Assembly: GCF_049075655.1 (NCBI RefSeq) | Contig: NZ_CP157522.1 | Location: 1,472,001-1,536,000, forward strand | Reading direction: 5' to 3' | Source of the DNA: Methanothermococcus sp. Ax23 | Lineage (GTDB): Archaea > AGJL01 > Methanococci > Methanococcales > Methanococcaceae | DNA length: 64,000 nt | Shown: piece after piece, positions 1-64,000 of the stretch | Layout: the number at the start of each line of letters is the position of its first letter | How positions within the stretch are numbered: the stretch's first letter is position 1 | Position numbers and translations under genes: made by a program | Notes under the pieces: generated by a model | Told to the model about the DNA's origin: nothing | The model's database searches: none | Seen by the model: the letters and a program-made list of their open reading frames with translations, nothing else

Positions 1-110
1 TAAACACCTCAGAGCTCATACGGTTCATCATATGTTATATATTATATATCAGCAAAATTTATTCATCACAGGTGTTTAATGATTATTATTATAATTATAA
101 ATTGTTCCCC

Positions 111-265
111 TTTTGAACAATATAAGGTGATATGATGAAATTCTTAATACTCGATGGATGGTCGAACCAAACCTTTAAAAAAGGTTTGGACGAAAATTCA
201 AAACTCACTTCGTTCGTTTTGAACAATATAAGGTGATATGATGAAATTCTTAATACTCGACGGAT
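111..265 (+). repeat. 49-bp direct duplication (111-159 / 217-265, 1 mismatch) of the RBS, start and first codons of the radical SAM gene, flanking a two-hairpin insert
   Basis: TTTTGAACAATATAAGGTGATATGATGAAATTCTTAATACTCGAYGGAT occurs twice, 106 bp apart; hairpins at 167-189 and 197-223. Confidence 0.9.
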
Positions 266-1815
266 ACACCGATGAACCTGCTGGACTTGGAGTTCCACCA
301 TATATAGGAACATATCCAAGATATGCCGCAGGTGTCATTTATAAATATAACTATGATGTGCATTATATAACTATCGATAGGTTAAGGGAAGAGATTAAAA
401 AAGGATTTGATTTTAACAAATTTGATGTAGTCATAGTAATTTGTGGATTTCACACTCCTGGAAAATACCTGAATGCAAATCCCGCAACATTGAGGGAAAT
501 TGTATCAATTTTATATGATTTTAAAGGATTAAAAATATTAGGGGGTCCTGTTGCAACAAAATTTGGTTCATCGATGGAAGGGGGAAAAATAAAAGACGAA
601 GAAAAGCTCAAATACTTCTTTGATGTCGTGGCTAGTGGAGACCTTGAAATAGTTTTATCTGATTTAATTGAGAATAATTTCAATATTGAAAAAATAAATC
701 CTGAAAAATTAAGAAATTACAATCAAATAAAGGAATTTGCAATTAGAGGAGCAAAAATTGTAAAGCAACATCCTGACTATCCTTACATCATTGCAGAAAT
801 TGAAACATACAGAGGATGTTCAAGAAATACAAGTGGAGGATGTAGCTTTTGCACAGAGCCGAGAAGGTTTGGAAGTCCAAAATACAGAGATGAGAGAGAC
901 ATAATTGAAGAGGTTAAAGAATTGTATTTAAACGGGATAAAATATTATAGAATAGGGCGACAACCATGTATTTTTTCATACAAGGCGAAAGATAGTGAAA
1001 AGGAGGAGCTCCCAAAACCAAATGTTGATGCAGTTGAAAGATTGTTTAAAGGTATATGTAATAATATTAAACCTGAGGTTTTACATATAGACAATGCAAA
1101 TCCTGCTATAATAGCAAGGCATGAAGATGAGAGTAGGGAAATTGCAAAAATACTTGTAAAATACTGCACAGGAGGAAATGTTGCGGCTTTTGGTGTTGAA
1201 AGTTTTGATGAGAAGGTAATTAAAAAGAATAATTTATTAACCACTCCTGATGATGTTTTAAAAGCTGTAAAAATATTAAATGAAATTGGAGGTAGTAGGA
1301 GCTCAACAGGTCTTCCCTATTTACTTCCCGGCATAAACTTATTATTTGGATTAAGGGGGGAAACAAAGGAAACATTCAATATAAATTATGATTATTTAAA
1401 ACAAATATATGATAGCGGATATATGATAAGGAGAATAAATATAAGGCAAGTTGTCCCATTTTTCGGCACAGATATAAGTATAAACGACATTAAAAAAGCA
1501 AAGAAAAGAAAAAAATTGTTTTTAAGCTTTAAGGAAAAAATCAGAAAGGAAATTGACAATCCAATGCTAAAAAGAGTAGTTCCAGAAGGAACTGTATTAA
1601 AAGATGTATTTGTTGAAGTTATGCAAATCAAAGATTTGCAAAATCCTTCGCTATCGCTCAGGATAAAGGAAAAGGAAACTCTTTATTTTGGGCGACAGTT
1701 TGGGAGCTATCCTATATTGGTTGGTATAATAGATAATGAATTAAAACTTAAAAGTTTCGTTGATGTTGAGATAACAGGATATGGTAGAAGGTCTATAACT
1801 GGAAAACCAATTTAA
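238..1815 (+). CDS. Radical SAM protein with B12-binding-like N-terminus and C-terminal TRAM-like domain
   Basis: EIETYRGCSRNTSGGCSFC cysteine motif; C-terminal VDVEITGYGRRSITG; AGGTGA RBS. Confidence 0.8.
   Translation: MMKFLILDGYTDEPAGLGVPPYIGTYPRYAAGVIYKYNYDVHYITIDRLREEIKKGFDFNKFDVVIVICGFHTPGKYLNANPATLREIVSILYDFKGLKILGGPVATKFGSSMEGGKIKDEEKLKYFFDVVASGDLEIVLSDLIENNFNIEKINPEKLRNYNQIKEFAIRGAKIVKQHPDYPYIIAEIETYRGCSRNTSGGCSFCTEPRRFGSPKYRDERDIIEEVKELYLNGIKYYRIGRQPCIFSYKAKDSEKEELPKPNVDAVERLFKGICNNIKPEVLHIDNANPAIIARHEDESREIAKILVKYCTGGNVAAFGVESFDEKVIKKNNLLTTPDDVLKAVKILNEIGGSRSSTGLPYLLPGINLLFGLRGETKETFNINYDYLKQIYDSGYMIRRINIRQVVPFFGTDISINDIKKAKKRKKLFLSFKEKIRKEIDNPMLKRVVPEGTVLKDVFVEVMQIKDLQNPSLSLRIKEKETLYFGRQFGSYPILVGIIDNELKLKSFVDVEITGYGRRSITGKPI
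1621..1665. repeat. Palindromic mini-element in frame in the radical SAM gene
   Basis: TGCAAATC-AAA-GATTTGCA followed by ATCCT-N12-AGGAT; encodes MQIKDLQNPSLSLRI. Confidence 0.65.
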
Positions 1816-2058
1816 TCGGATATTTTAATATTTTTTTATTAATTTTTATTATTTCATTATTATATATTCTGTTTTCTTGTTATATATGATATATCCCTAA
1901 ATGTAGTAATTTAATATAGTTAATTTTTTATACAATTATTAATTAAATGTATTTACAAACATATTATTACCAAAAATTTTATATACCACAATTCAATACT
2001 ATTACTAAGAATATAATTTCCTTGTGTTATTGATTATAACGGAAGTATAATTCCTTCA

Positions 2059-2859
2059 ATGATAATAATCGATGGTGATGATATGAAAAAAAGTCTTCTT
2101 ATAATAGGCATGGGTTTGATAATACTGAGCCTAACAATATCAGGATGCACTGAAAAAGAAAATACTAATGCCTCAATCCATGCCTATGTTGGAGCGGGAA
2201 TGCAACAGCCTATGGATGAAATTGGAAAGGAATTTGAAAAAAAATATAATATAAAGGTTAATTATGACTACGCAGGTAGCGGACCTCTTTATTCAAAAAT
2301 CCTTGCCTCAAATAAGGGAGACATATATATGCCCGGTGCATACTTCTATGTCAGTGAATTGAGTAAAAAAGGGTATATTATTGAATATAGCAATATAACA
2401 AAACATATTCCAGTAATTGTTGTTGAAAAAGGAAATCCAAAAAATATTACTTCACTTGAAGATTTAGGAAAACCTGGGGTAAAATTATCACTTGGTGAAG
2501 AAAACATTGCAATAGGAAGAACATTTAATAAGATATTGACCAAGGCAGAAAAAGATTATCCTGGCATAACTCAAAAAATAAAAAATAACACTGTTGTTAG
2601 AGGAGCTACTGTAAAACAAACACTACTTTATGTAGAGCTCGGTCAAGCTGATGCCGCAGTGGTTTGGAGGGCTGATGCTCTAAGCAGTGATAAAGTGGAA
2701 ATAATACAAATAAATCCAAAATACAACATAATTAAAACTGTCCCAATAGCTATACTAAATACGACTGAAAATAAAGAAAACGCAAAATTATTTTATGATT
2801 TCGTAAATACCGAAGGAAAAGAGATATTCAAAAAATACGGGTTCGAAGTGATAGAATAA
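2059..2859 (+). CDS. modA: Molybdate/tungstate ABC transporter substrate-binding lipoprotein (start probably 2083)
   Basis: Lipobox ISGC; AGSG, GNPKNITSLEDL and GQADAAVVW motifs. Confidence 0.85.
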   Translation: MIIIDGDDMKKSLLIIGMGLIILSLTISGCTEKENTNASIHAYVGAGMQQPMDEIGKEFEKKYNIKVNYDYAGSGPLYSKILASNKGDIYMPGAYFYVSELSKKGYIIEYSNITKHIPVIVVEKGNPKNITSLEDLGKPGVKLSLGEENIAIGRTFNKILTKAEKDYPGITQKIKNNTVVRGATVKQTLLYVELGQADAAVVWRADALSSDKVEIIQINPKYNIIKTVPIAILNTTENKENAKLFYDFVNTEGKEIFKKYGFEVIE

Positions 2860-2918
2860 TAATTGTTAATGGCAACATAAGTGGTAATAATGTAATAATG
2901 TAAAAAATTAGGGATAAC

Positions 2919-3719
2919 ATGAGAACAAATCTATTAAAATTCTTTTCCTTATCTGCTTTATCCATTTTTATTGTGTTAATTCTTTTCATTGTGCTGGCGA
3001 TTGTTGGTAAAGTATCCATAGGAACACTTCAAGAAGCCATATTTTCAAAAGAAATCCAATTTGCCGTAAAACTTAGCTTAATGACTGCATCAATTGCTAC
3101 TTTACTTGGTGTCATAGTAGGAGCTCCTTCTGCCTATGCCCTTGCAAGATACAACTTTAAAGGAAAGGAATTAATCGACAGTTTGATAGACCTGCCGGTG
3201 ATACTTCCACCACTTATATCAGGTTTTGCCCTTCTTGTGTTTTTTGGAAATACATTGATTGGAAGAGTCATAACTGAAAACATAATAAATGTGGTATTTA
3301 GTCCCACAGGAATAATTGTTGCACAGTTCTTTGTTGCAACACCGTTTATTATTAAAACATCAAAGGCAGTATTTGAGGGCATTGATGAGAAATACGAGCA
3401 TATAGCACAGAGTTTAGGAATGACAAAACTTAAAACTTTCTTTAAGGTTGTTCTTCCAATGGCAAAAAATGGTATTCTTGCAGGTATGATTCTTGCATGG
3501 GCAAGGAGTATGGGGGAATTTGGAGCCACACTAATGCTTGCAGGAGCCACAAAGATGAAAACCGAGACACTGCCTATTGCAGTATTTTTAAATATATCCG
3601 TGGGTAAGTTAGAGCTCGCACTATCAGTAGCATTTATATTTCTTGTAGTTGCAGTATTAACTATATTCTCAATAAAAACGATAGTTAAAATAGGCGGTGA
3701 TGATTATGATAAATATTAA
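2919..3719 (+). CDS. modB: Molybdate ABC transporter permease
   Basis: DLPVILPP and WARSMGEFGAT motifs, TM helices. Confidence 0.9.
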   Translation: MRTNLLKFFSLSALSIFIVLILFIVLAIVGKVSIGTLQEAIFSKEIQFAVKLSLMTASIATLLGVIVGAPSAYALARYNFKGKELIDSLIDLPVILPPLISGFALLVFFGNTLIGRVITENIINVVFSPTGIIVAQFFVATPFIIKTSKAVFEGIDEKYEHIAQSLGMTKLKTFFKVVLPMAKNGILAGMILAWARSMGEFGATLMLAGATKMKTETLPIAVFLNISVGKLELALSVAFIFLVVAVLTIFSIKTIVKIGGDDYDKY

Positions 3720-7968: not shown

Positions 7969-8153
7969 AATTTTTTTCTTCTTTCCATGCTTCTTCCCTT
8001 GCTTTTTCAAAGTCCTTTAAATCATCTTTTGTTAAATCCAATTCTTTAACTAATTTTTCTAATAATATTTTTTTCAATAATCGTTCCCTTTTTTGTAATT
8101 GTTTTAATATCTTCAATTGAAAGATTTTTAATATTTTCAGTTTCAATTGGCAT
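7949..8153 (-). pseudogene. Frameshifted small antitoxin-like protein
   Basis: ATG at 8153 with GGTG RBS (MPIETENIKNLSIEDIK); needs a one-base shift to continue as QLQKRERLLKK...FEKAREEAWKE. Confidence 0.4.
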
Positions 8154-8344
8154 AATTCCACCGAAATTTTAATATAATTATTTTTTATTAAACATTGGTA
8201 TTAATGTAAATATATAAATATATGTTATAGCGAGGGGATTTTAGGTTTTGTGAGAAAATAAATTTAAATAATAATGTATAAAAAATAATATTTATTCTCA
8301 AAATTTGGGGTGGTAATATAGTATTTAATTTTATTAAAAGTATT

Positions 8345-11005: not shown

Positions 11006-11051
11006 TTTTTAAAAAATTACCATAAGGTAAATATAAATATTCGGCGATAGT

Positions 11052-11218
11052 ATGAGCTCACCAATATTAAAACGAATTTCAAAAATGCCCGAAGAGATTC
11101 CCGAAGACAGAGGATTTAATGAAATTACAAAAGAAGAGCTGGAAAATAATTATAAAAAACTTAAAAATAAAGATTTTTAGGGAACAGAAGAAGAATTATT
11201 TGAATTATTGGAAAACTA
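11052..11218 (+). pseudogene. Small acidic antitoxin-like ORF with internal stop
   Basis: MSSPILKRISKMPEEIPED...KDF*GTEEELFELLEN*. Confidence 0.35.
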
Positions 11219-11226
11219 AAAATTAA

Positions 11227-11880
<654 letters not shown>

Positions 11881-11883
11881 TAA

Positions 11884-26245: not shown

Positions 26246-27712
26246 CTGACCTACTCCCACGACTAAAGTCGTGGGGTTCTTTAGTAGGGTCTAACCCTAC
26301 ATGGGTGGCCAAACCCACTACCCCTATCTCCGTTTAGGAGATTCAGGGCTACGCTACATGAAAATACTTTTTTCAAAATATTCAAAGCACCATTAACATC
26401 AGCATTCAAAACCATACCACACTCACTACAAACATACAAACCCCTATACTTTCTATTGCTCTTTTTAACTACACCACAATTACTGCAAGTTTGAGAAGTA
26501 TAAGCTTCATTAACCTGTTCTACTGTTAATCCCTTTTCCTCTGCTTTATACTGTATCATACTTACTAACCTACCAAAAGGTATCTTGTGTATTTTCTCGT
26601 TGTTCTTTCTACCAATATCAATACTTGAAATGCCCTTGTTTAACTCACCGATTACAATCCTTGAAACTTTGTTATCCACTGCAAACTCAACAATCATTTT
26701 ACTAACCTTATGCAAATAATCCTTAGTATAATTCTTTTCTCTTACTGTTAAGCAGGATAATCGCTTATTATTCTTTAACTGTTTCCGTGTTAGTTTGGAC
26801 TGTAGTTCCCCCTTAGTTTTAGCAAACCATCGGAATTTAGAAATTAGTCTCCTTCCATCGTAGATTACTGCACTGCCCGTATTGGTTACTACTGTTGCTA
26901 AATTCTTAATTCCTAAATCAATACTTAATATATTACCTTCTTTGATAGGTTCTTGAATTACTGGTTTCTTATAGATTAAGTGAAGTATGTAGTAGGTTAT
27001 CCCGTAGATAGTCTGCGGAACTATCTCAACTTCTTTAACTTGCATGGTATCAAGCGGTAGAGTTTTCGATAACCCTACCCATAGATACCTGCACTTGATA
27101 CCATGCTTCTCTTTGAGATAGTTTTTAGTTTGTTTAGATAAGGATAATCTTAACTTATTGCCTATGATTTTGAAACCTTGCTTCTTCCATTTTACGGGAA
27201 AGTGTCCATCTTTTGGTTGGTATCGTGGTCTTTTAGTGTGTTGTTTGAAGTAGTTTTGCCATGCTATCGCTTGCGTAGCAAGCGAGCAACGAAAACCGAA
27301 GGTTTTCGTCTAATTGAGAGTTTTTGACATACTGCCTGTGCTGACTGTGAGTGCAGGTTTTTAAACCAGAAGTTATTCTTCATTTGAACATCTATCTTAC
27401 TAGGTTTAATGTTTCGTTGTATTACTTCGTAGTTAGATACATTCCAGAGTTTTGATGCTGAATAGGTTAAATGGTTTATGATTGTTAATTGTTCATTATT
27501 TAAACTTCTGGTTAGGTTTATTGTCAGCACTCTGGTTACTTGCATGGAATTCACCAAATTTATATATATGCTATTATTCTAATTACACTCATATATTATG
27601 TAGTGGAGTATATAAAAAAATGATGTCCGCCTATCATCCAATCTCATAAGAGATTTTACAAAACCTTGTTTTGTATAACGATTAAAATCGTTGGCTTTCT
27701 CGGCGGTTTATC
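26246..27712 (-). mobile_element. IS200/IS605-family tnpB-only (IS1341-like) element, copy 1
   Basis: Left end GATAAACCGCC preceded by TTAC; right-end hairpin CCCACGAC-TTTA-GTCGTGGG, terminus TCAG; homologous to 32254-33821. Confidence 0.92.
26281..27557 (-). pseudogene. tnpB: TnpB RNA-guided nuclease frameshifted by a 47-bp hairpin insert (27268-27314)
   Basis: SIDLG, NEAYTSQTCSNC, CSECG, NADVNG; removing 47 bp restores CQKLSIAWQNYF. Confidence 0.88.
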
Positions 27713-32410: not shown

Positions 32411-33735
32411 TTGGTGAATTCCATGCAAGTAACCAGAGTGCTGACAATAAACCTAACAAGAAAACTAACCAATGAACAATTAACAATCATAAACCATTTA
32501 ACCTACTCAGCATCAAAACTCTGGAATACATCCAATTATGAAGTAATACTACAAAACATTGAACCAAATAAAATAGATGTTCAAATGAAGGATAACTTCT
32601 GGTTTAAAAACCTACACTCACAATCAGCACAGGCAGTATGTCAAAAACTCTCAATTAGACGAAAACCTTCGGTTTTCGTTGCTCGCTTGCTACGCAAGCG
32701 ATAGCATGGCAAAACTACTTCAAACAGCACACTAAAAGACCACGATACCAACCAAAAGATGGACACTTTCCAGTAAAATGGAAGAAACAAGGTTTCAAAA
32801 TCATAGGCAATAAGTTAAGGTTATCCCTATCAAAACAAACTAAAAACTATCTCAAAGAAAAGCATGTTATCAAGTCCAAGTACTTATGGGTAGATTTATC
32901 GAAAACTCTACCGCTTGATACCACGCAGGTTAAAGAAGTTGAGATAGTTCCGCAGACCATCTATGGGATAACCTACCACATACTTCACTTAATCCATAAG
33001 AAACCAGTAATTCAAGAACCTATCAAAGAAGGTAATATACTAAGTATTGATTTAGGAATTAAGAATTTAGCAACCACAGTAACTAACACGGGCATCAGGC
33101 GAAAACCTTCGGTTTTCGCTACTCACCAACATCAGTTGGTGAAAGCAGTAATCTACGATGGAAGAAGGTTAATTTCTAAATTCCGATGGTTTGCTAAAAG
33201 TAAAGGAAAAATCCAATCTATCCTAACAAAGCAAGAGTTAAAATATAATAAACGATTATCCCGCTTAACAGTAAGAGAAAAGAATTATACTAAGGATTAT
33301 CTACATAAAATAAGTAAAATGATTATCGATTTTGCAGTAGATAATAAAGTTTCAAGGATTGTAATCGGCGAGTTAAACAAAGGCATTTCAAGTATTGACA
33401 TTGGAGATAGGGTTAATCAGCAATTGCATAGAATACCTTTTGGTAGGTTAGTAAGTATGATAATGTATAAAGCAGAAGAAAAGGGATTAACAGTAGAACA
33501 GGTTAATGAATCTTATACTTCTCAAACTTGTAGTAATTGTGGTGTAGTTAAAAAGAGTAATAGGAAGTACAGGGGTTTGTATGTGTGTAGTGAGTGTGGT
33601 ATGGTTTTGAATGCTGATGTGAATGCTGCTTTAAATATTTTGAAAAAAGTATTTTCATGTAGCGTAGCCCTAAATCTCCTAAACGGAGATAGGGGTAGTG
33701 GGCTTGGCAACCCATGTAGGGTTAGACCCTACTAA
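32411..33735 (+). pseudogene. tnpB: TnpB with a 47-bp frameshifting insert (32654-32700) and a 48-bp in-frame insert (about 33095-33142)
   Basis: Alignment with copy 1; frame open from 32701 to 33735. Confidence 0.88.
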
Positions 33736-33786
33736 AATTAGACGAAATCACTTCGTGATTTCGTTGCTCGCTTACTACCGTAAGCG
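33736..33786 (+). repeat. Double-hairpin mini-element in the right-end/omegaRNA region of IS copy 2
   Basis: ATTAGACGAAATCAC-TTC-GTGATTTCGTTGCTCGCTTAC-TACC-GTAAGCG; absent from copies 1 and 3. Confidence 0.85.
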
Positions 33787-33841
33787 AGAACCCCACGACT
33801 TCAGTCGTGGGAGTATGTCAGAAAAATTTAAAGTGGTTAGT

Positions 33842-34837
33842 ATGGATAAAACAAATCAAAACAGCAACAAATACATTCCAGAGGAAATTTACAATATTTT
33901 GAGAAAACAGCACTATCAAATAAAAGACCACAGTGCTGTTAAATTGTGCGGATGGGTGAGAAAATCACTTCTTGAAAACAAAAACTGCTATAAATCAAAG
34001 TTTTACGGAATAGCAACCCATAGATGCATCCAATGCACACCGTCAGCAATTTGGTGTCAGCAGAGCTGTATATTCTGTTGGAGGGTTCTCCCAGCTGATT
34101 TAAATAAATACGATAACACCAATAACCAAAATATTGGCTATAAACTGCCAGAATGGAAAGAACCTGAGGAGGTAATGAACGATATTTTTGAAATGCATAG
34201 AACCATTATAATGGGGTATAAAGGCATACTGGACAGGATAGGGGAAGAGAAATTTAGTGAAGCCATAAATCCAAAGCATGTGGCCATATCCCTATCAGGG
34301 GAGCCAACAGTTTATCCCTATTTAAAGGAATTAATTGAGTTATTCCATAAAAAAGGTTTATCAACATTTGTGGTGTCAAATGGAATATTAACCGATGTGA
34401 TAGCAGAAATAAACCCAACACAGTTATATGTTTCACTTGATGCCTATGATTTGGACAGCTATAAAAAAATATGCGGCGGAAAGGAAGCTCAGTGGGAAAA
34501 GATACTAAATACTCTCGATATACTCGAATCCAAAAAAAGAACCTGTTTAAGAACTACATTAATAAGAAACTACAACGATGACATAAAAAAATTCGTTCCA
34601 CTCTATGAAAGGGCAAATACAAACTTCATAGAATTAAAATCTTATATGAATGTTGGATATTCGAGAAAAAGATTGAATCTTGACGACATGCTCAAACATG
34701 ATGAAATAATCAATTTGAGTAAAACTCTTGAAGAAAACAGCTTCTACAAACTTGAAGATGATTCATTTGACAGTAGGGTATCCCTTCTTGTAAATGAAAA
34801 TAGGAGGATAAATCCAAAAATTAAATTTGATTATTAA
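33842..34837 (+). CDS. taw1: 4-demethylwyosine synthase (radical SAM); true start 33842
   Basis: HSAVKLCGW, CYKSKFYGI, CQQSCIFCWR, HVAISLSGEPT. Confidence 0.93.
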   Translation: MDKTNQNSNKYIPEEIYNILRKQHYQIKDHSAVKLCGWVRKSLLENKNCYKSKFYGIATHRCIQCTPSAIWCQQSCIFCWRVLPADLNKYDNTNNQNIGYKLPEWKEPEEVMNDIFEMHRTIIMGYKGILDRIGEEKFSEAINPKHVAISLSGEPTVYPYLKELIELFHKKGLSTFVVSNGILTDVIAEINPTQLYVSLDAYDLDSYKKICGGKEAQWEKILNTLDILESKKRTCLRTTLIRNYNDDIKKFVPLYERANTNFIELKSYMNVGYSRKRLNLDDMLKHDEIINLSKTLEENSFYKLEDDSFDSRVSLLVNENRRINPKIKFDY

Positions 34838-38597: not shown

Positions 38598-39905
38598 TTA
38601 TACTTGTAAAAGAGCTCTACCATTTAAATCTACAATATAACTCACATCGGGATTGGGTGGCATCAATCTCAACTCTCCTCTGGGTTCATCGGAGAGTAAA
38701 TCATCGACCTTCACCCCAGTCACGGGAACCCCAACTCCGCCTAATAATTTTTCAACTAATTTAATTCCTCTTTTAAATACATTAAAACAACCAACAAATT
38801 GCCTATTAAAATCCCCACAATTATTGCATTTAACAACCTCCCCCTCTTGGGACTCCATTCTACTCCCGCATACGGGACAGGTTTTTGAAGTGTAGTGGGG
38901 ATTAACATAAACAACAACACTCTTATACTCTAATTTCCCAGCTATTCTTCTCCAATTACTTCTATCTAAATCCCTATTGAATTTAGAGTTTTTACCATAC
39001 ATGTTAAACTTATCTAAATCTTCAAATACTAAAATTGCATTAGGAAAGAGTTTAGATAGTTGGGAAGTGAGTTTGTTAATAAAATCATTAACTCGATTTT
39101 TTCTCCTATTCCAGTATTTTCTAAGTAGTTTGCTAATCCTCTTAGGGGCTTTTTTATAGATTGATTTTAACCTATCGATTATTACATCATAAATCCCCTT
39201 AATCCTATGCAATTCAGACAAATCAACTCTAATCCAACCTTTTTCTGAGTGATATAAGTCCAATGACTTTAAATTACTATCAATTCCAATAATTACTTCC
39301 TTATCAGATAAATCCAACTGTCTTTTGAAGGTTATTAATGCCTCATTATCCTTTAAAATAACCTCTCCAACATTAAAGTTCTTAATTTTTTCGTAGAACC
39401 ACGCATCCTTAATATTTAAAACCAAATACTCCTTTCTCGGTTTTATGGTAATTCTTATATTTCCATTTTCTTTATCATGTCTTATTAGGGTGTTTTTAAC
39501 TCTAACAAAAGGTCTTTTGAATGTTGGTTTGTTTATTTCCCTGTTACCGTTTAAATAATTTGATTTCCAACTGTTTATTGTAGAGTAGGCGGTTTTAATA
39601 GCTCCATCGATATAATGAGATGCAAACTCCCAACCTTTTAATGAGTGATTTCTTAACTCTCTTTTGAAATCTTTATCCTTTGGAATTTCTGGGATTAGTC
39701 GAGTAGTTTTGTAGTATTTGTATTTCTTTCCTACTTTGTATCGATGTTTAATTGTCTTTTCTTTCCAATTTATATTTTTCCAAATAATATTAATGGCTTC
39801 ATTTAAGATTTTTAGAAATTCTTCTGGTAGGTTTTTTAAATCGTAATTGTGTTTAACTTTGTATGTTAGGATAATTTCGGTTGGGATTTTGTTTTTATTT
39901 GGCAT
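38598..39905 (-). CDS. tnpB: IS607-associated TnpB
   Basis: IGIDSN, VFEDL, YTSKTCPVCG, CNNC; RuvC-III reads NRQ. Confidence 0.88.
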   Translation of the reverse strand: MPNKNKIPTEIILTYKVKHNYDLKNLPEEFLKILNEAINIIWKNINWKEKTIKHRYKVGKKYKYYKTTRLIPEIPKDKDFKRELRNHSLKGWEFASHYIDGAIKTAYSTINSWKSNYLNGNREINKPTFKRPFVRVKNTLIRHDKENGNIRITIKPRKEYLVLNIKDAWFYEKIKNFNVGEVILKDNEALITFKRQLDLSDKEVIIGIDSNLKSLDLYHSEKGWIRVDLSELHRIKGIYDVIIDRLKSIYKKAPKRISKLLRKYWNRRKNRVNDFINKLTSQLSKLFPNAILVFEDLDKFNMYGKNSKFNRDLDRSNWRRIAGKLEYKSVVVYVNPHYTSKTCPVCGSRMESQEGEVVKCNNCGDFNRQFVGCFNVFKRGIKLVEKLLGGVGVPVTGVKVDDLLSDEPRGELRLMPPNPDVSYIVDLNGRALLQV

Positions 39906-55724: not shown

Positions 55725-57008
55725 TCAGAGCCCCGTAAATATTTTCTTCAAGTCAATATTTACATTTTCAACATATTCCTTTTGATTTTGCCCGTTGTGT
55801 TTTAAATTTATGGTTCTTATAAATAAATGTTCTTCCTCATTAAAGGCGTATTCTTTATTAAATTCTTTTTCGTATTTTGGATATAGTAATACTCCCTTTT
55901 TACAGTCGTATTTTTTTAAATAGGCAAACATTTGGTAGGCGTCGCTTTGATTTATATTGTAATTTTTAGTTTTATCGTCAATGAGATTTTTATATTTTGT
56001 ATCAATTATTAAAAATGGCTTGTTGGTGTTATTGGAGCTATAAACTACAATATCGGGCTTTAATCTAAAAGTGTTATTATTGTTTTCATCGGTCAATAGG
56101 TAGAGCTCACTATGTTGTAAGTGTATTACACATTCATTATTAAAAATTTCATCATAATGTTTTTTTAAAATAGTTCCGACAAATTCTTCAAATAAATAAT
56201 CCATGTTAAAAATTAAGGAAAAGGTTTTCAAATCCTTTGAATTTAAATTTGTTGATTCATTTAAAATAAACATTTTTGCCATTTCTATGTATGGCTTAAA
56301 CCTCTCGTTCATTCTGTTGAATTTTACTTTTTTAAAATCGTTAATAGTAATGGTTTTATAATCAATATCACTTAAAACAAAGCTTAAATCACTTAAAAGC
56401 TTCTTATTTTTTGGATTGTTTGTTATGTTTTTTAGGAGCTCTACGGCGTATTTAAAAATTTTATTTATTAAATTATTTTCTGAAAATTCCGCATATTTGC
56501 AGTATAATTTATGTTTATTTATATAATTATGTTTTATTTGCTTTGTGGTGTGTAGTTTTCCTTTTAAATATGTTAAATTTTCCTCTTTTTTGTTGTAGTT
56601 TTTGTAAATTCCGTTTTCAATCTCCTTTAATAAATTTTTAGCAAAAAGGTATATATAAATTTCAAATAAATCATTGTTCTTTGATAAATTTGCAAAATTT
56701 TCCTTAATTTTCAATTTCTTTGTGTATGAAAGCATATATAAAAGGTTGGTAAGTGCTTCTTTTTGTTTTTGTTCTTCGTTTCTTTCGTTTTTGTAAATTT
56801 TAGGTAGAATTTGAATTGTTGTGTTGTTTATTTTCAGAGCTCCTACAAATTGTTTTGCTTTTATTGTTTTATGCCCATCTTTAAAAATTTTTAATTTTCT
56901 GTTTAGTTTTATAAGTTTTAGGATGTCTTTTTTAGACATTCCGCAGTGTTTCAACTCCCCAAATGTTTTCCTTTCATGCTCAAAAAAAGTAATAGTTTTA
57001 TTTTTCAT
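55725..57008 (-). CDS. mcrC: McrC-family restriction nuclease subunit
   Basis: IQILPKI, FNMDYLFEEFV, LKPDIV, IIDTKYK, DAYQMFAY. Confidence 0.9.
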   Translation of the reverse strand: MKNKTITFFEHERKTFGELKHCGMSKKDILKLIKLNRKLKIFKDGHKTIKAKQFVGALKINNTTIQILPKIYKNERNEEQKQKEALTNLLYMLSYTKKLKIKENFANLSKNNDLFEIYIYLFAKNLLKEIENGIYKNYNKKEENLTYLKGKLHTTKQIKHNYINKHKLYCKYAEFSENNLINKIFKYAVELLKNITNNPKNKKLLSDLSFVLSDIDYKTITINDFKKVKFNRMNERFKPYIEMAKMFILNESTNLNSKDLKTFSLIFNMDYLFEEFVGTILKKHYDEIFNNECVIHLQHSELYLLTDENNNNTFRLKPDIVVYSSNNTNKPFLIIDTKYKNLIDDKTKNYNINQSDAYQMFAYLKKYDCKKGVLLYPKYEKEFNKEYAFNEEEHLFIRTINLKHNGQNQKEYVENVNIDLKKIFTGL

Positions 57009-57018
57009 TTTACTCCCC

Positions 57019-59046
57019 TTATGTAATTACTGAATTTAATGCTTTTATAAATTCCTTCCCTTCATATTCTTTAATTTCATATAATTTTAAATCATCATCA
57101 ATTAAATCGTAATTTATTTTTATATTTGGTTTTTTATCATCGATAAAGCCCTTTAAAATCTCCTTTAAGCATTCCCAATCGTTGTAAAAGTATTCCATTA
57201 ATAAAGGTATTATTTCGTTATACCAAACAAATCTTAAATCATCTATATCTTTAACATTTAAAAAGTATGAATGCCCTATTCTGTGGTCTCTATCTTTTAA
57301 AAGTGTTATTTTAGTGTTTATTGTCTCCAATAGTTTTTTAAGGAATTCATCATTTCCTAATCTTTTGAACATTTTTTCAATGTCTTTTTTAGTGTTATTA
57401 AATTCCTCATCGTCGCATTTATTTTTCCATATCTTAATTAAACTATCCTTTGTTATTAAATCATAGATTGGCTCTATTTCTAGAAATCCAAATCTTCGCC
57501 TTAATGCTGTATCTAATAAGGCAATGCTTTTATCCGCGGTGTTCATTGTTCCGATTATATATAAATTTGGTGGCACTGCAAAAGGTTCTTTTGAATAAGG
57601 TAATTCTACTATCATTCCACCATCTTCTCCCCCTAATCGTTTATCCTTTTCTAAAAGTGTTATCAATTCCCCTAAAATGTTTGATATGTTCCCTCTGTTT
57701 ATTTCGTCTATTATTAGGTAATATTTTGGTGCATCTTGGAAATCGTCTTTTGTTAGTTCTTTGTTTTTGATTGCGTTTATTACTTTTTGTTTTATTTGTT
57801 CATAGTCATTAATATTGTCAAATTTAATATTTCCTATTTTTATTGAATTTTGATGTTCTAATGAGTATTTATCTAAATATTCAATTTCAATTTTCTTTAA
57901 TTCTTCAAGTATGGGATAAATATAGGAACGGTTTGATGCTCTAATGTCTGATGGTCTATTGATGTTGTATCTATCTAGCCAAATGTCTCTTAGTGTGATA
58001 ATGTCGATAGTAATTATTTTGTTATGGTTTTTTTCTAAAATTATTTTTTCATTACTATACTCGTCTTCTTCTAAATAATCCTTAATTTTAAATGATATGC
58101 CTCTTACAGTATTAAATACGCTTTCAGGCGGATATTTTTCCTTAAAAATATTCATTAATGGAAAGAAGTGATTATTTTTTATAAAATATACAACAAATAA
58201 GTAATCCAATTTTTTATTAAATCTTTGTTCAAGTAAATATTTAAATTCTGCAAATTTATCCAACACTCGTTTATAATCCCCCCATTTCATGTCATCAGAA
58301 TATTCAAACTCAATATCTAAAAAGTTATAAGCGAAGTCTACAACATTTTCATCAATTAATATAAATTTGTCAGGATATATCTTACATAAAAATTCAGTTG
58401 CTGGCTCAATGTATTCAAAATATTTTAAAAATGAAGAAAATAATTTCTTATTGTTATTTTCAGTTAATGCTAACCTTAGTAACTCATTAATGCGGTCTTC
58501 TTCTGCAAACCACCAATGCCAATCTAAATGCCAAAAATTTAAACTATCTAAATATTCACCATCTATTTTTTCATCATTTTTAACTCTATTTAATATTTTA
58601 CTAAACTCTTTTTTAGTATTTTCATACTCCTTAATTAGTTCTTTACCTTTCTCCGTTTCTAAATAATCTTTAAATAAACAAATAAGAAAGTTTAACTCCT
58701 CACTTAATTTAGTATCATTTAAAAAGTATGTTAAAGTTGTCTGTATTTTATTGTATTTGTTCTTCAAAGCTTCCCAAATTGCCAAAATACACATTTTTTT
58801 AAATATTCCATCTTCAACTTCATAAATAATATTTTCCATTTCAGTTTTTGGTTTTAATCCTTCAATAAACTCTTCGTAGGCGAATGTCTGATGAAATGTA
58901 ATTATTTTACTATGATTTATTTGATTTTCAATAAATTTCTTCGCTAAATATGTCTTTCCAACCCCTGGAACTCCATATAAAATTATTTGCTTTTTTCTTT
59001 CTAAAATTTTATCCATTTTATCAAATATTTTATTTTCAAATTCCAT
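57019..59046 (-). CDS. mcrB: McrB-family AAA+ GTPase with large internal insertion
   Basis: GVPGVGKT, FHQTFAYEEFIEG, IIDEINRGN, MNTAD, ALRRRF, IGHSYF. Confidence 0.9.
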   Translation of the reverse strand: MEFENKIFDKMDKILERKKQIILYGVPGVGKTYLAKKFIENQINHSKIITFHQTFAYEEFIEGLKPKTEMENIIYEVEDGIFKKMCILAIWEALKNKYNKIQTTLTYFLNDTKLSEELNFLICLFKDYLETEKGKELIKEYENTKKEFSKILNRVKNDEKIDGEYLDSLNFWHLDWHWWFAEEDRINELLRLALTENNNKKLFSSFLKYFEYIEPATEFLCKIYPDKFILIDENVVDFAYNFLDIEFEYSDDMKWGDYKRVLDKFAEFKYLLEQRFNKKLDYLFVVYFIKNNHFFPLMNIFKEKYPPESVFNTVRGISFKIKDYLEEDEYSNEKIILEKNHNKIITIDIITLRDIWLDRYNINRPSDIRASNRSYIYPILEELKKIEIEYLDKYSLEHQNSIKIGNIKFDNINDYEQIKQKVINAIKNKELTKDDFQDAPKYYLIIDEINRGNISNILGELITLLEKDKRLGGEDGGMIVELPYSKEPFAVPPNLYIIGTMNTADKSIALLDTALRRRFGFLEIEPIYDLITKDSLIKIWKNKCDDEEFNNTKKDIEKMFKRLGNDEFLKKLLETINTKITLLKDRDHRIGHSYFLNVKDIDDLRFVWYNEIIPLLMEYFYNDWECLKEILKGFIDDKKPNIKINYDLIDDDLKLYEIKEYEGKEFIKALNSVIT

Positions 59047-59694: not shown

Positions 59695-61077
59695 TTAATA
59701 TGTTCTTGCAACTGCAATATACTCTTTTCCGTCGTATTCAGTAGTTCCAAGAACAGAAGCGTCTATTAAATCTTCAAACTCTTCGTTGTATATGCTTTCA
59801 TCATAAGGTATTAGGACCACTCCTTTTTTATCTGCAAGTGTTTCTTTTACCTTGTCTATGAGAGCTCCGCCATCATCTTCAATTATGGTGATGAATGAAT
59901 TTACTCTTTCACATGCTTTTTCTTTAATTGTTTCCATTATGGAGTTCATTATGTTGTTTATTTCATTTAGTAAATCGTCTTCATCTATTTGGAACTTTTC
60001 CCCAGAGTCTCTTCTATATAAAGTAATCTTTTTATTTTCTATATCCCTTGGACCCAATTCAATTCTAAGTGGAACTCCCCTTAATTCCCAGTCATTGAAC
60101 TTCCTACCCGGTCTTATGTCCCTATCGTCAAGTTTTACCCTGAATCCTTTTTCTTTTAATATTTTATAAATTTCTTTTGCCTTGTTCATTGCAATTTCTT
60201 CTTTTCCTTTAAACAATAGTGGAACAATTACTATTTGAATCGGTGCAACATTTGGCGGAAGTATGAGCCCTTTTTCATCTCCATGAAGTGCTATAATGGA
60301 GGCTATGACTCTATCGGATATACCGTAGCATGTTTGATAGGCATAGTCCTTTCCACCGTCTGCTGTTTCAAATTCCAATTCAAAGGTTTTTGCAAAATTC
60401 TGCCATAAATTATGGACTGTTCCTATTTGCATAGTTTTTCCATCTGGGAATATGGTATCAAATGCCATAGTGTATTCTGCACCTGGGAATTTATCCCATT
60501 CTGGTCTTTTTGATATGATTGTTGGAATGCCGAGCTCATCAAAGAAATTTTTATATATGCTTATTGCTTCCTTTACCTGATTTTCAGCATCTTCCTTTGT
60601 AGCATGGGCAGTATGTGCTTCCTTAAATGTCATGATTTCTCTTAATCTGATAAGAGGTCTTGTGTGCTTTGTTTCGTATCTAAATGTATTCACTATCTGA
60701 TAAACCTTTATTGGAAGGTCTGTATGCACTTTCATCCACAACTTCATCATATAGTATATTGATGTTTCAGAAGTAGGTCTTAAAGCAAGTTTAACATCAA
60801 GGGGCGTTGTTCCACCATGTGTCACCCAATAAACTTCATCTTCAAATCCTTTTATATGCTCCCCTTCCTTTGCAAGAAGGTCTTCTGGAATAAGCATTGG
60901 AAATAGTGCTTCGTCGTGCTCTGTTTCATCGAGCATGTTTCTTATTATTTCAAATGCGTATCTTCTTATTTTAAATCCATAAGGTAGATAAACACCGCAT
61001 CCTTTTATTGGATATCTTAAATCGTATATTTCCGCTCTTTCAAGTATATTTCCATACCATTCTGAGAAATTTTCCAC
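59695..61077 (-). CDS. proS: Proline-tRNA ligase (archaeal type)
   Basis: [31 protein letters not shown]-terminal ARTY. Confidence 0.97.
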
Positions 61078-61354
61078 TGTTTCACCTATGTTGATTAATA
61101 TAGATTAATAATGTATTTCTCCAAACTGTAAAAATACATAAAATACATAAAAATGAAATACTAAATGAAAATATAAATAAAATATTATTTAAATTATTTA
61201 TAAATATACCTTATAATATATTATGCATCATAACATAAACAACTATTTTACAATATGTATATTTATTATGGTATTTTATTATAACATTTATTATAATCAT
61301 TATTTTAATAAAAAGGAAGAAAAAAGGAAAGAAAAAAGAATGAGAGGTATAAAC

Positions 61355-64000
61355 ATGTCAGTTGATTTTGTTAAAATTGCGGAAAAATGGCAAAAAAGAT
61401 GGGAAGAAGATAAAATATTTGAAGCGGATGCTGGAAATCCAGAAGAACCAAATAAAAACGAAAATAAATTTTACATAACTGCGGCATTTCCATACTTAAA
61501 CGGAGTTCTACATGCTGGGCATTTAAGGACTTTTACAATACCTGAAACAATTGCAAGATACCATAGAATGAAAAATAAAAATGTTCTATGGACTTTTGGA
61601 TACCATGTAAGTGGAACACCTATATTGGGATTAGCGGAGCTCATAAAAAAACAGGATGAGCACACAATTTGGGCATACAATACATTACACAATATACCGA
61701 TGGATGACCTATTAACATTAAATACGCCAGAAAATATTGTAGAATATTTCTCAAAAAGAGCTACTGAAGCCTTTAAAAAAATGGGATTCTCATTAGATTG
61801 GAGAAGAAACTTTAAAACTGATGATGAAACATTTAAAAAGTTCATAGAATGGCAGTTTTTAAAGTTAAAGGAAAAAGGATACATTAAAAAAGGCTCTCAC
61901 CCTGTGAGATACTGCCCAAGATGTGATAACCCTGTGGAAGACCACGACTTACTAAGGGGGGAAGAAGCAACACTTATTGAGTATGTGCTCTTGAAATTCA
62001 AAACAAAATTAAAACTAAAATTAGATGATGAAAACGAAGAAAAAGAAATAGAATGCATCATGCCTATGGCTACGCTTAGACCTGAAACAATATTTGGTGT
62101 AGTAAATGCTTGGATTAACCCAAATGAAACATATTATATAATAAAAGTTTACGATGAGATTCAAAACAGCGACAGCGAGGATATAACGCTAAAATACAAT
62201 GGTATATGGATTGTCAGTAAAGAAGCTTCCGAGAAGCTTAAAAATCAAGATAAAAAAGTAGAATTAATAAAGGAAATAAAAGGAAGTGAATTAGTTGGAA
62301 AAACTGTAATAAATCCTATTACAAACAAGGAAGTGCCACTATATCCTGCAACCTTTGTTGAAACAGAGATTGGAACAGGGTGTGTAATGAGTGTTCCAGC
62401 ACATGCTCCTTATGATTATGTTGCTTTAAGGGATTACTACAACAGCATCGGCAAGGAATTAAATGACGATGAATTAATATCACTTATAAAAATAGATGGA
62501 TATGGAAAATTCCCTGCAAAGGAAATTGTAGAAAAAATGAGAATAAAAGACCAAAAGGATGAGGAGAATTTAGAAAAGGCTACAAATAAAATCTACAAGG
62601 ATGAATTCCACAAAGGTATATTAAATGAAAACTGCGGAGAGTATGAAGGCATCGCTGTAAGGGATATAAAAGATAAACTTACAAAGGATTTAATTAACAA
62701 AGGCATAGCGGAAATTCTTTATGAATTCTCAGAACCTGATGTAGTTTGTAGATGTGGAACAAAATGTGTTGTAAAAACAGTTAAAGGGCAATGGTTTATT
62801 ACATACTCAGATGAGGAATGGAAGAAAAAGGCACATGAATGCGTAGATAAAATGAACTTCATCCCTGAATCCGTAAGAGTGGATTTCCACAATAAAATTG
62901 ACTGGATGAAGGACAAGGCATGTGCAAGGAAAAAAGGATTAGGAACAAGGTTTCCATTTGATAAAAATTGGATGATTGAAAGTCTTTCAGACAGTACCAT
63001 ATATATGGCATACTACACAATAGCAAAGACAATAAACACAAACAATATAAAACCTGAACAGCTTCTTCCAGAATTATTTGACTATGTATTCTTTGGAAAA
63101 GGGGATATAACGGAAGTTTCAAAAAACACAAATATAGATGTCGAGCTCATAGAGGAAATGAGAAAAGAATTTTTATACTACTATCCGTTGGATTGGAGAT
63201 GTTCGGCAAAAGACCTTGTGCCTAACCACTTAACATTTATGATATTTAACCATGTGGCATTGTTTGATGAGGAATTTTGGCCAAGGGGTATCGTTGTAAA
63301 TGGATATGTGACAATAGAGGGCAAAAAACTTTCAAAATCAAAAGGTCCTGTTCTTCCAGTAATGGAAGTTGCTGAAAAATATGGTCCTGATGTTGGAAGA
63401 TTCTATATCACCACCTGTGCCGAGCTCCCACAGGATGCTGATGTTAAGTTTAAAGAGATGGAAAAAGCTAGGGATAATTTAATTAAATTCTATGAATTAG
63501 CAATGGATGTAAAGGATATTGACAATAATTTAAATGAATTGGATGAATTATCGACAATTGATAAATGGTTATTGCATAGAGCTCATAATGCCATAAAGAT
63601 AGCAGATGAATCTTATGATACATTCCACCTTAGAAAAGTGGGAATATTGTTCTATGGTCTTATGAATGATTTAAGATGGTATAAGAGAAGAGGCGGAGAT
63701 AACAAGAACATATTAAGGGAAGTAATCGAAATATGGACAAAGATACTTGCACCTATGACACCCCATTTATGTGAAGAGATATGGGAGCTCCTTGGTAAAG
63801 ATGGATATGTATCAAAGGAATCATTCCCAGTGGCTGATGAAAAATATATCGATGAATCCCTTGACTTAGGAGAGGAGTTCATAAAATCCACAATGGAAGA
63901 CATAAGGAACATTATGGAAGTTGCAAAAATAAAACCAGAAAAAATATACCTATACACATCGGACGATTGGAAGTATGAGATTTTAAAAATTATGAATGAA
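61355..64000 (+). CDS. leuS: Leucine-tRNA ligase, truncated by the window end (missing from the ORF track)
   Basis: AAFPYLNGVLHAGH (HIGH), MATLRPET, GTGCVMSVPAHAP, KLSKSKG (KMSKS). Confidence 0.96.
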   Translation, partial: MSVDFVKIAEKWQKRWEEDKIFEADAGNPEEPNKNENKFYITAAFPYLNGVLHAGHLRTFTIPETIARYHRMKNKNVLWTFGYHVSGTPILGLAELIKKQDEHTIWAYNTLHNIPMDDLLTLNTPENIVEYFSKRATEAFKKMGFSLDWRRNFKTDDETFKKFIEWQFLKLKEKGYIKKGSHPVRYCPRCDNPVEDHDLLRGEEATLIEYVLLKFKTKLKLKLDDENEEKEIECIMPMATLRPETIFGVVNAWINPNETYYIIKVYDEIQNSDSEDITLKYNGIWIVSKEASEKLKNQDKKVELIKEIKGSELVGKTVINPITNKEVPLYPATFVETEIGTGCVMSVPAHAPYDYVALRDYYNSIGKELNDDELISLIKIDGYGKFPAKEIVEKMRIKDQKDEENLEKATNKIYKDEFHKGILNENCGEYEGIAVRDIKDKLTKDLINKGIAEILYEFSEPDVVCRCGTKCVVKTVKGQWFITYSDEEWKKKAHECVDKMNFIPESVRVDFHNKIDWMKDKACARKKGLGTRFPFDKNWMIESLSDSTIYMAYYTIAKTINTNNIKPEQLLPELFDYVFFGKGDITEVSKNTNIDVELIEEMRKEFLYYYPLDWRCSAKDLVPNHLTFMIFNHVALFDEEFWPRGIVVNGYVTIEGKKLSKSKGPVLPVMEVAEKYGPDVGRFYITTCAELPQDADVKFKEMEKARDNLIKFYELAMDVKDIDNNLNELDELSTIDKWLLHRAHNAIKIADESYDTFHLRKVGILFYGLMNDLRWYKRRGGDNKNILREVIEIWTKILAPMTPHLCEEIWELLGKDGYVSKESFPVADEKYIDESLDLGEEFIKSTMEDIRNIMEVAKIKPEKIYLYTSDDWKYEILKIMNE

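Follow-up and report, generated by a model that had tools for sequence, protein, structure and literature searches.

Among the described systems that lie closest to the one reported here, the uptake signal sequences (USS) of the Pasteurellaceae and the DNA uptake sequences (DUS) of the Neisseriaceae are asymmetric words of 9–12 bp that occur about once per kb and have a demonstrated uptake bias. The Dcm/Vsr excess of CCWGG in enterobacteria needs a 5-methylcytosine (m5C) methylase, drains the T/G neighbour of the site and is a far smaller effect than the one described below. For the cyanobacterial highly iterated palindrome HIP1 (GCGATCGC), observed/expected ratios (O/E) of 15–300, densities of 300–2,700 copies per Mb and a periodicity of 10–90 kb are given in the accessible parts of PMC4390886 and PMC5861425. 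In the part available of Xu, Lawrence and Durand (2018; PMC5861425), the function of HIP1 was left undecided after 20 years' study and a role in nucleoid structure was suggested. In the corresponding part of Gedara et al. (2023; PMC10164549), DpdA/DpdB of Salmonella was found to block PvuII at CAGCTG by modifying a G, with a C after the target G required and CxGCxG as a partial motif. The subject of the present analysis is the palindromic hexamer GAGCTC in a stretch of 64,000 nucleotides of Methanothermococcus sp. Ax23 (G000:C1:1472001-1536000), referred to here as the window, and in the genome to which it belongs (G000; 1,670,680 bp, two contigs, GC 31.9%, 98.9% complete). GAGCTC was found to be the most over-represented hexamer of this genome, in excess in all reading frames and between genes, and is almost certainly a genuine, maintained, HIP-like word.

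A sequence-only reading of the window had put the number of copies by eye at about 80, with 3–4 expected at an estimated GC of about 30%. The exact count was 83, against 3.73 ± 2.01 in 100 dinucleotide-preserving shuffles (largest 9), and the GC of the window was 30.5%; all five positions cited as examples in that reading (12, 1006, 1299, 12241 and 44401) appeared in the computed site list. The feature was as follows:

12..63790, no strand: 83 dispersed copies of GAGCTC by exact-word count, 13 of the 83 within GGAGCTCC; CTCGAG, 0 copies.

By the open reading frame (ORF) calls made for this analysis, 49 of these sites were read as GAG-CTC, 27 as xGA-GCT-Cxx and 4 as xxG-AGC-TCx, with 3 outside ORFs, so that the several frames noticed earlier are indeed all three. 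The whole genome contained 2,089 copies (about 1.25/kb, or 1,250 per Mb), 4 of them on the second contig of 7.7 kb, with O/E values of 16.7, 19.7 and 13.1 under order-0, Markov-1 and Markov-2 expectations, respectively. The runners-up, GGAGCT/AGCTCC, both overlap GAGCTC, and no other hexamer, palindromic or not, came close; the genome-wide hexamer comparison, set beforehand as a check, thus gave no non-palindromic word of similar composition sharing the enrichment.

The excess was found to be independent of coding. Genes were defined by an ORF heuristic of our own (1,661 ORF-based genes, 87% of the genome covered), and codons were permuted within each gene in 30 synonymous shuffles that kept the protein and the per-gene codon usage. 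Coding GAGCTC numbered 1,963 against 196 ± 12 in these shuffles (maximum 220) and 115 in a whole-codon shuffle, and the excess was 7–13-fold in every reading frame:

GAG-CTC: 1,106 observed, shuffle mean 86 (G000 coding).
xGA-GCT-Cxx: 631 observed, shuffle mean 84 (G000 coding).
xxG-AGC-TCx: 226 observed, shuffle mean 25 (G000 coding).

Both codons of the most frequent frame are minority codons, GAG accounting for 9,405 of 36,925 Glu and CTC for 2,918 of 43,860 Leu. Nevertheless, 1,106 of 4,009 Glu-Leu pairs were written GAG-CTC, with 68 predicted from codon usage, and GAG preceded 38% of all CTC codons. The excess therefore does not come from codon or dipeptide usage, and it survived the control for Glu-Leu and Gly-Ala frequencies on which the sequence-only reading had made its case depend. 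Site density was 1.35/kb in coding and 0.59/kb in non-coding DNA (non-coding GC 24%); the non-coding set, which may contain RNA genes and ORFs under 70 aa, held 124 sites where 3.8–6.7 were expected, an 18–33-fold excess.

The word is exact and short. The AGCT tetramer had an O/E of 1.03, and AGCT as the true target was ruled out by the other NAGCTN words, which stood at only 0.5–1.2. The flanks of GAGCTC carried at most 0.21 bit, with G at -1 in 38% of half-sites. When the sites themselves were masked, one-mismatch neighbours were present at 0.82–1.48 of the synonymous-shuffle expectation, apart from words with GATC or GCGC, which are avoided in this genome anyway; AAGCTC/GAGCTT stood at 0.82 (z = -4.6), GAACTC/GAGTTC at 1.15 and GGGCTC/GAGCCC at 1.48. 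Neither a halo of decayed copies nor a drained transition class was seen among these neighbours, and their neutrality is what would be expected if nothing but the perfect word were favoured. A repeat family of the repetitive extragenic palindrome or miniature inverted-repeat transposable element kind, or a decayed burst, was ruled out by the information-poor flanks and the neutral one-off variants; the sites also lie in unrelated genes and in three frames, unlike those of a repeat element. Gaps between sites were near exponential (mean 797 bp, median 532 bp, longest 11,098 bp), counts in 20-kb bins were even and dispersion was near Poisson (variance/mean 0.88–1.21). No periodicity between 5 and 200 kb was significant, the best periodogram value lying at 53.6 kb (permutation p = 0.29), and the gap distribution showed no short-range spacing preference.

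The distribution of GAGCTC was determined in 41 genomes, comprising G000 and 40 relatives; a survey at the level of the phylum of G000 (38 genomes at 80% completeness or more) added none to these. Five were found to be rich:

G000: 2,089 GAGCTC.
G012: 2,070 GAGCTC; 99% complete.
G010: 1,645 GAGCTC.
G013: 1,515 GAGCTC.
G003: 1,321 GAGCTC; 1.4 Mb, 90% complete.

The remaining 36 genomes contained 4–490 copies, and the comparison across relatives asked for by the earlier reading thus revealed a lineage-restricted trait. In the highest of the poor genomes (G040) the reversed control word was frequent too (340 copies), and the count of this genome therefore looks compositional. Congeners of G000 of similar size ranged from 4 to 115 copies, and four of them were nearly empty (G002 16, G005 14, G007 4 and G008 9); the g3 genomes, which belong to the same family, held 66–103. 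The phylogenetic tree was built from prolyl-tRNA synthetase (ProRS) only, for 30 of the 41 genomes, and the gene, which lies in the window, served as follows:

59695..61077, minus strand: ProRS, phylogenetic marker and synteny anchor for the Dpd-type cassette described below.

In this tree the four rich genomes of the genus g1 formed a clade (support 100/98) whose sister clade was wholly poor, and the fifth, G013, which belongs to a different genus, branched outside it. Measurements of O/E and of orthologues in G012, G010 and G013 were made on 400-kb samples; GAGCTC was again the top hexamer, with O/E values of 25, 23 and 11.5, respectively. In the poor congener G005, O/E was 0.07 for GAGCTC, 0.05 for AAGCTT, 0.20 for TAGCTA and 0.14 for AGCT overall, which looks like the signature of an AGCT-directed (AluI-like) restriction, so that close relatives of opposite sign either hoard or avoid the same word. 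An octamer dialect was also found: 1,259 of the 1,645 sites of G010 are GGAGCTCC, as against 333/2,089 in G000, 335/2,070 in G012, 184/1,321 in G003 and 191/1,515 in G013. The half-site swap CTCGAG is nearly gone from the rich archaeal clade (6–21 copies). Relative to the Markov-1 expectation, G000 avoids all GATC-containing hexamers (0.02–0.07), the CTNNAG palindromes (CTGCAG 0.14, CTTAAG 0.04, CTATAG 0.08, CTCGAG 0.14) and the GTNNAC palindromes (GTGCAC 0.08, GTTAAC 0.06, GTCGAC 0.10, GTATAC 0.10), which suggests that restriction systems with degenerate targets of 6 bp act, or once acted, on this genome.

Conservation of the sites was far stronger than that of other synonymous states, and gains balanced losses. 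Across 249 aligned orthologue pairs of G000 and G012 (median 88% amino-acid identity), 316 of 392 sites of G000 (81%) were identical at the orthologous place, vs 43% for other hexamers. Among 601 conserved Glu-Leu pairs, the word was present in both genomes at 178, in G000 only at 27, in G012 only at 26 and in neither at 370; hexamer identity at such pairs was 87% for GAGCTC, 63% for GAATTA and 12–57% for other codon pairs. In all frames together, 317 sites were shared, 76 private to G000 and 83 private to G012, and polarisation with G010 as outgroup gave 5 losses in G000 and 2 in G012. Sites common with G010 amounted to 28% and with G013 to 22.5% (76% identity); differences from these two genomes were bimodal, with either 0 or 2–3 changes, mostly to GAATTA or GAACTT. 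Co-occupancy was above independence throughout (odds ratios of 94, 5.8 and 3.0 for G012, G010 and G013, respectively). Extra gene flow between G000 and G013 was considered and not seen, the distribution of identities resembling that of G010. At the GAG-CTC sites of G000, the poor G005 had Glu-Leu in 55% of cases, vs 53% identity for any dipeptide; the sites are thus overwhelmingly synonymous choices. The Glu-Leu/Leu-Glu ratio was 1.35 in G000, 1.42 in G012, 1.44 in G010, 1.16 in G013 and 0.87 in G005, and with one poor genome compared, a slight reshaping of protein sequences by the word excess is merely suggestive. Taken together, the population-genetic signature is that of a perfect word favoured over every one of its neighbours, and it excludes a codon artefact, a repeat family, a decayed burst and Vsr-type repair at a single position.

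Residence time in the genome matters for the GAGCTC content. The 48 multi-copy insertion sequence (IS)-like genes of G000 (at least two paralogues at 80% identity or more; 27.7 kb) contained no GAGCTC, and none of their 70 Glu-Leu pairs was written GAG-CTC. Genes with a homologue in G005 carried 1.46 sites/kb and used the word for 30.4% of their Glu-Leu pairs, vs 0.97 sites/kb and 17.3% in genes without one. The mobile and restriction-related genes of the window were as follows:

26281..27045, minus strand: IS-like ORF of 254 aa, multi-copy family also matched in G010 and G012; 0 GAGCTC.
33136..34837, plus strand: two overlapping IS-like ORFs of 199 and 379 aa, the first by family match, the second by position only; 0 GAGCTC.
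38598..39905, minus strand: IS605-family TnpB (OrfB_IS605 and Cas12f1-like TNB domain, by Pfam); 1 GAGCTC near the 3' end.
55725..57008, minus strand: McrC (PF10117 McrBC, 5.5e-82); 3 GAGCTC.
57019..59046, minus strand: McrB-like AAA protein (AAA_5); 0 GAGCTC.

These counts agree with what had been seen by eye, namely no GAGCTC in two IS605 copies or in mcrB and one in an IS607. By its domains, the pair of McrC and McrB-like genes (55725..59046) is a predicted modification-dependent restriction system, and a McrC homologue with 65% identity is present in G013. McrBC of E. coli cleaves at purine-methylcytosine, and by this rule the McrBC of the window would clash with methylation of the inner C of GAGCTC. 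Elsewhere in the window, a KAP-family P-loop NTPase of 886 aa (8345-11005, plus strand) has 2 GAGCTC and no G005 homologue, and the GC of the surrounding 8001-12000 is 23.6%; this gene may be part of a defence island. The longest GAGCTC-free stretches lie outside the window, at G000:C1:113848-124946 (11.1 kb) and 1342927-1355393 (adjacent gaps of 7.4 and 5.1 kb), and at a GC of 26–27% they probably represent islands of recent acquisition. Two neighbouring genes immediately upstream of 113848-124946 encode paralogues of 341 and 497 aa that look secreted and are almost identical over their N-terminal halves.

A candidate agent was found in the comparison with G005. ORFs of G000 lacking a G005 homologue numbered 383 of 1,657 (141 after filters), and those absent from G005 and present in G010 included a four-gene cluster that lies 3.3 kb beyond the window end. 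Together with the last gene of the window, it is described as follows:

61223..64000, plus strand: 5' part of a gene for a 1013-aa protein that extends beyond the window; 5 GAGCTC over its full length.
G000:C1:1537329-1542521: Dpd-type cassette of DUF6884 protein, UvrD helicase, PD-(D/E)XK nuclease and DpdA (Pfam and PADLOC).

The DpdA is full-length (PADLOC model, E = 1.2e-123), the DUF6884 protein is weakly DpdC-like, and the cassette itself contains 18 GAGCTC in 5.2 kb. DpdA was present in G000, G013 (81%), G010 (70%) and the poor G032 (60%) and was not found in the other 37 of the 41 genomes, including all 9 of the sister clade; it thus occurs in 3 of the 5 rich Methanococcales and in 1 of the 36 poor ones, with a raw Fisher p of 0.0036 in which kinship is ignored. 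The DpdA of G032 lies on a separate branch of the DpdA tree. CAGCTG was tried as a possible HIP-like word of this DpdA-bearing, GAGCTC-poor genome and, with 300 sites vs 47–190 in four others, is not HIP-like. The gene order ProRS, 1013-aa gene, 264-aa gene, cassette and 266-aa gene is shared by G000 and G010, and since the cassette stands in the same place in both, it is ancestral to the rich clade; the gain of DpdA and the increase in GAGCTC map to one and the same branch. The cassette was the sole gene set found to track the trait. In the same list of genes without a G005 homologue, a 1271-aa helicase-like protein (G000:C1:1294246-1298061, outside the window), apparently interrupted, as judged by eye, by a large intein- or homing-endonuclease-like insert, has a 74%-identical copy in G010 and counts as 'absent' from G005 under the coverage filter.

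The association recurs in bacteria. Eighty DpdA loci from other genomes were gathered by means of an alignment of 17 DpdA proteins, and the four-gene cassette was found to be kept as a unit in most of them. The gene order DUF6884, UvrD, PD-(D/E)XK and DpdA recurs across dozens of archaea and bacteria that are unrelated to one another, and DpdA is fused to DUF6884 (PF21818) in many proteins; judged from its genes, the cassette looks like a widespread compact Dpd-type defence system. Among loci of at least 9 kb, GAGCTC was the top palindrome in 6 of 70 (31–67 observed vs 4–10 expected), and those six belong to Thermovibrio, to Desulfurobacteriaceae or to an unclassified bacterium of the same DpdA branch. 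Five whole genomes of these bacteria contained 2,068–4,327 GAGCTC, with CTCGAG at 3–7 in four of the five. In 97 kb of their DNA, 227 GAGCTC were counted vs 84 ± 8 by synonymous shuffle; the fold-excess was 2.2 in frame 0 and 7.3 and 5.3 in the other two frames, the preference for GAG and CTC codons in the Desulfurobacteriaceae loci alone accounting for 74 of the 166 copies in frame 0. In the same DNA CTCGAG occurred 0 times vs 53 expected and GGAGCTCC 95 times vs 12 expected, so that the enrichment in Desulfurobacteriaceae is at the level of the word. When 28 genomes of this family were compared, 17 were rich (814–4,327 sites) and 11 poor (10–320), and DpdA was present in 15 of the 17 and 0 of the 11, with a raw Fisher p of 3.6e-6 in which relatedness is not controlled. 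CTCGAG was present at 1–9 copies in many of the rich genomes, with exceptions in G046 (100) and G066 (748).

These observations led to a model in which a sequence-specific DNA-modification system would recognise GAGCTC and the word, densely repeated, would mark DNA as 'self'. The 6-bp palindrome, the 8-bp dialect and the avoidance in sister lineages suggest a protein akin to those of restriction-modification, and the leading candidate agent would be the four-gene Dpd-type cassette past the window end. Its DpdA would replace the G that precedes the central C (GAG*CTC) with a derivative of 7-deazaguanine, and DNA rich in modified sites would be spared in cis by the helicase-nuclease of the cassette. 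Resident DNA would then be selected to carry the word often, and newly arrived DNA would be without it. This Dpd model is preferred on account of the word form, which is like that of restriction-modification sites, the tracking by DpdA, the gain on the same branch and the recurrence in a bacterial family, and it is put forward as a tentative possibility. A more specific version, with a Chi-like epigenetic logic in which DpdA would write 7-deazaguanine and UvrD with PD-(D/E)XK would destroy sparsely marked DNA, the whole having arisen at least twice among Methanococcales and separately in Desulfurobacteriaceae, is more speculative and on balance unlikely.

Several findings weigh against the Dpd model. 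Ordinary restriction-modification yields avoidance of sites, so that a cis-protective logic must be postulated. The strongest counter-evidence comes from the rich G012. Here, the 264-aa and 266-aa genes lie 150 bp apart, a clean deletion of the cassette, and this cassette-less genome still has an O/E of 25 with no decay relative to G000 (76 private sites in G000 vs 83 in G012); the cassette is therefore not needed for maintenance, unless its loss was very recent. DpdA was likewise not found in the rich G003 (90% complete), and neither G012 nor G003 contained another DpdA-like tRNA-guanine transglycosylase (TGT) paralogue. As many as 64 of the 70 cassette loci of at least 9 kb showed no GAGCTC excess, and an all-hexamer scan of 62 loci of at least 12 kb gave no other hyper-abundant word, with only five Desulfurobacteriaceae loci positive; since most cassette loci have no such word, the cassette alone does not create one. 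Two rich Desulfurobacteriaceae, G049 and G066, gave no DpdA match either. Among 178 genomes of the wider Aquificota, DpdA was present in 0 of ten chosen beforehand for high GAGCTC and low CTCGAG counts, raw counts in which a preference for GAG and CTC codons is not separable from a word-level excess, and in 0 of five ordinary ones. Finally, the DpdAs of the rich archaeal and bacterial lineages are not sister groups.

Nearly as likely as the Dpd model, and still a doubtful proposition in itself, is that another agent makes and keeps the word and that the cassette is a follower of target-rich genomes or a co-inherited passenger. In line with what has been put forward for the HIPs of cyanobacteria, such an agent might consist of an orphan methylase and a process coupled to it, and the enzyme may differ from one lineage to the next. 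The retention of sites in G012 and the ten count-rich Aquificota are accounted for under this explanation, and alternative HIPs are described as co-occurring with matching, possibly non-orthologous methylases in the part available of Elhai (2015; PMC4390886). A C5-cytosine methylase (PF00145) was absent from G000, in a search whose controls were positive in 9 of 14 reference genomes, and the RE_SacI family (PF09566) gave no match in any of the 41 genomes, the control genomes likewise being without one. Six DNA-methylase candidates were found in G000, none assignable to GAGCTC by sequence:

L001: beta-class, TSPPY motif; orthologues in G003 and in seven poor genomes of another family (f2).
L002: type III Mod; 0 GAGCTC, inside a GAGCTC-free 5.3-kb gap.
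L005: 501-aa N6_Mtase match, type I-like subunit by eye.
L006: type IIG; patchy across relatives.
L007: type II gamma; orthologue in G003 only.
L011: Eco57I-type with TaqI-like specificity domain, 1069 aa; full-length orthologue in G013 at 77%.

L011 forms a two-gene module with a partner of 216 aa at G000:C1:353653-357512 (loci L011/L062), matched at G013:C1:15926-19772 (L063) in a host of a different genus. The partner is 89% identical between G000 and G013 and has no Pfam or PADLOC match; the C-terminal half of L011, with the TaqI-like domain, is by eye far more similar between the two genomes than the N-terminal half, whose first 300 aa are without annotation. Neither G003 nor G010 yielded an L011 match, and the G012 copy, on the small contig C2, matches only residues 1-724, its C-terminus being unrelated; G010, without L011, is the genome with the octamer dialect. 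Weighing on the other side, none of L001, L006, L007 and L011 tracked the rich genomes among the 41, and no methylase thus explains all of them. A catalytic-motif scan of the 1,657 ORFs of G000 gave eight further matches, none a DNA methylase by eye; L011 and L001 had only distant, patchy homologues in five rich Desulfurobacteriaceae, and no candidate agent emerged. The methylase of AGCT or GAGCTC with a repair drive, proposed in the sequence-only reading, accordingly gained no support: there was no C5 methylase, no tracking candidate among the four searched and no enrichment of AGCT.

Less probable is that GAGCTC is bound by a nucleoid or Chi-like protein, or by one that organises the chromosome, and is kept by selection without any modification. 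The favouring of the perfect word alone with neutral neighbours fits a binding site, as do the even density along the chromosome and the conservation of sites beyond background, which is the criterion for selection in the accessible part of Xu et al. (2018; PMC5861425). The absence of periodicity (p = 0.29) and the near-Poisson dispersion are unlike HIP1, no candidate protein was found, and a palindrome cannot have the orientation bias that defines Chi or the FtsK-orienting polar sequences (KOPS). In addition, a binding site leaves both the DpdA association and the avoidance in sister lineages unexplained.

An uptake or recombination signal of the USS/DUS kind, accumulating by molecular drive, is rather improbable; uptake and nucleoid-protein signals had both been named as options in the sequence-only reading. 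Methanococcales are naturally competent, and the density of 1.25/kb is near that of USS and DUS; the occurrence in all frames and in non-coding DNA, the depletion in recent or mobile DNA, the lineage dialect and the balance of gains and losses would also suit such a signal. The word is nevertheless a 6-bp palindrome and known signals are asymmetric words of 9–12 bp; no core of that kind was present, the information being limited to the six bases except for the G...C extension in G010. An uptake signal predicts neither the DpdA association nor the avoidance in sister lineages, g3 relatives have only 66–103 sites, and no receptor candidate is known.

Biased very short patch (VSP) repair tied to cytosine methylation, which turns near-sites into sites as in the Dcm/Vsr model of CCWGG, is very unlikely. 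It is the classical route for the rise of a methylated palindrome, and AAGCTC/GAGCTT is slightly low (0.82). However, there is no C5 methylase, the deamination neighbours stand at 1.15 and 1.48 and are not drained, and VSP repair yields only modest enrichment, vs 17-fold here; the repair part of the earlier proposal is likewise unsupported, no one-mismatch class being drained as Vsr-type repair predicts. A by-product of codon usage, of Glu-Leu and Gly/Arg-Ala dipeptides or of base composition can be dismissed for G000 with near certainty, because, although GAG and CTC are preferred in Desulfurobacteriaceae and some Aquificota are high in both GAGCTC and CTCGAG, in G000 they are minority codons, the shuffles gave 196 and 115 against 1,963, the non-coding excess is 18–33-fold and congeners range from 4 to 115.

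The HIPs described so far, among the cases found in the accessible literature, are cyanobacterial, and GAGCTC adds a second and independent case of equal strength, seen in an archaeon as well as in one family of thermophilic bacteria, which extends the phenomenon beyond one phylum. The view in the sequence-only reading that none is known to have been described for Methanococcales was matched by the literature within scope, to which subscription journals and supplements did not belong. Natural contrasts are provided by close relatives that hoard or avoid the same word, and a lead is provided by a 7-deazaguanine cassette with a homologue in bacteria that targets a word of this class. Should the cassette prove causal, a new logic of self-recognition in defence systems would follow, and the Chi-like version, if true, would offer a way in which highly iterated palindromes could arise, a problem so far unsolved; should the cassette not prove causal, its clean natural loss in G012 still helps to confine where the true agent is to be sought. 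In rich genomes, the word can also be used as a marker that distinguishes resident from recently acquired DNA.

Compared with the known systems, GAGCTC is like USS and DUS in its density of about one per kb, its presence in coding and non-coding DNA, its depletion in recent DNA, its dialects and its bias to the perfect word, and unlike them in being a 6-bp palindrome. Like the target of Dcm/Vsr, it is a palindrome raised by a process at the DNA level; unlike that case, no m5C methylase and no drained neighbour were found in G000. Restriction-site avoidance concerns the same class of word with the opposite sign, GAGCTC being enriched 17-fold here and sister lineages avoiding GAGCTC or AGCT; in G000 itself, the avoided words listed above fall to 0.02–0.16 of the Markov-1 expectation. 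To Dpd systems the likeness, known here from the genes, consists of a full-length DpdA, a DpdC-like/DUF6884 neighbour and genes for a helicase and a nuclease; CAGCTG, the mapped site of a bacterial DpdA, and GAGCTC belong to the same N-AGCT-N class of palindromes, as far as the accessible part of PMC10164549 allows the comparison. The cassette differs from the larger dpd cluster in being compact, with four genes and no DpdB-like gene among them, no dedicated search for DpdB having been made, and no link between Dpd systems and over-representation of the target word was found in that part of PMC10164549. HIP1 is an octamer of cyanobacteria, whereas GAGCTC is a hexamer of an archaeon and of Aquificota bacteria; unlike HIP1, its one-off variants are not common (0.8–1.5), it has no periodicity of 10–90 kb, no cognate or C5 methylase was found for it, and it is associated with a DpdA cassette, of which there is no mention for HIP1 in the accessible parts of PMC4390886 and PMC5861425. 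Of the sequence-only reading, the likeness to HIP1 stood and the methylase and repair drive gained no support, and DpdA, the Desulfurobacteriaceae and the octamer dialect were unforeseen in it. Like HIP1, GAGCTC is a short, exact, GC-rich palindrome spread over the whole genome (O/E 13–25, 1,250 per Mb), frame-independent and also intergenic, patchy among relatives, with variant or extended forms and conserved beyond background. The analogy with HIP1 is thus an apt one, for a word that is exact, frame-independent, genome-wide, conserved in close relatives and restricted to certain lineages.

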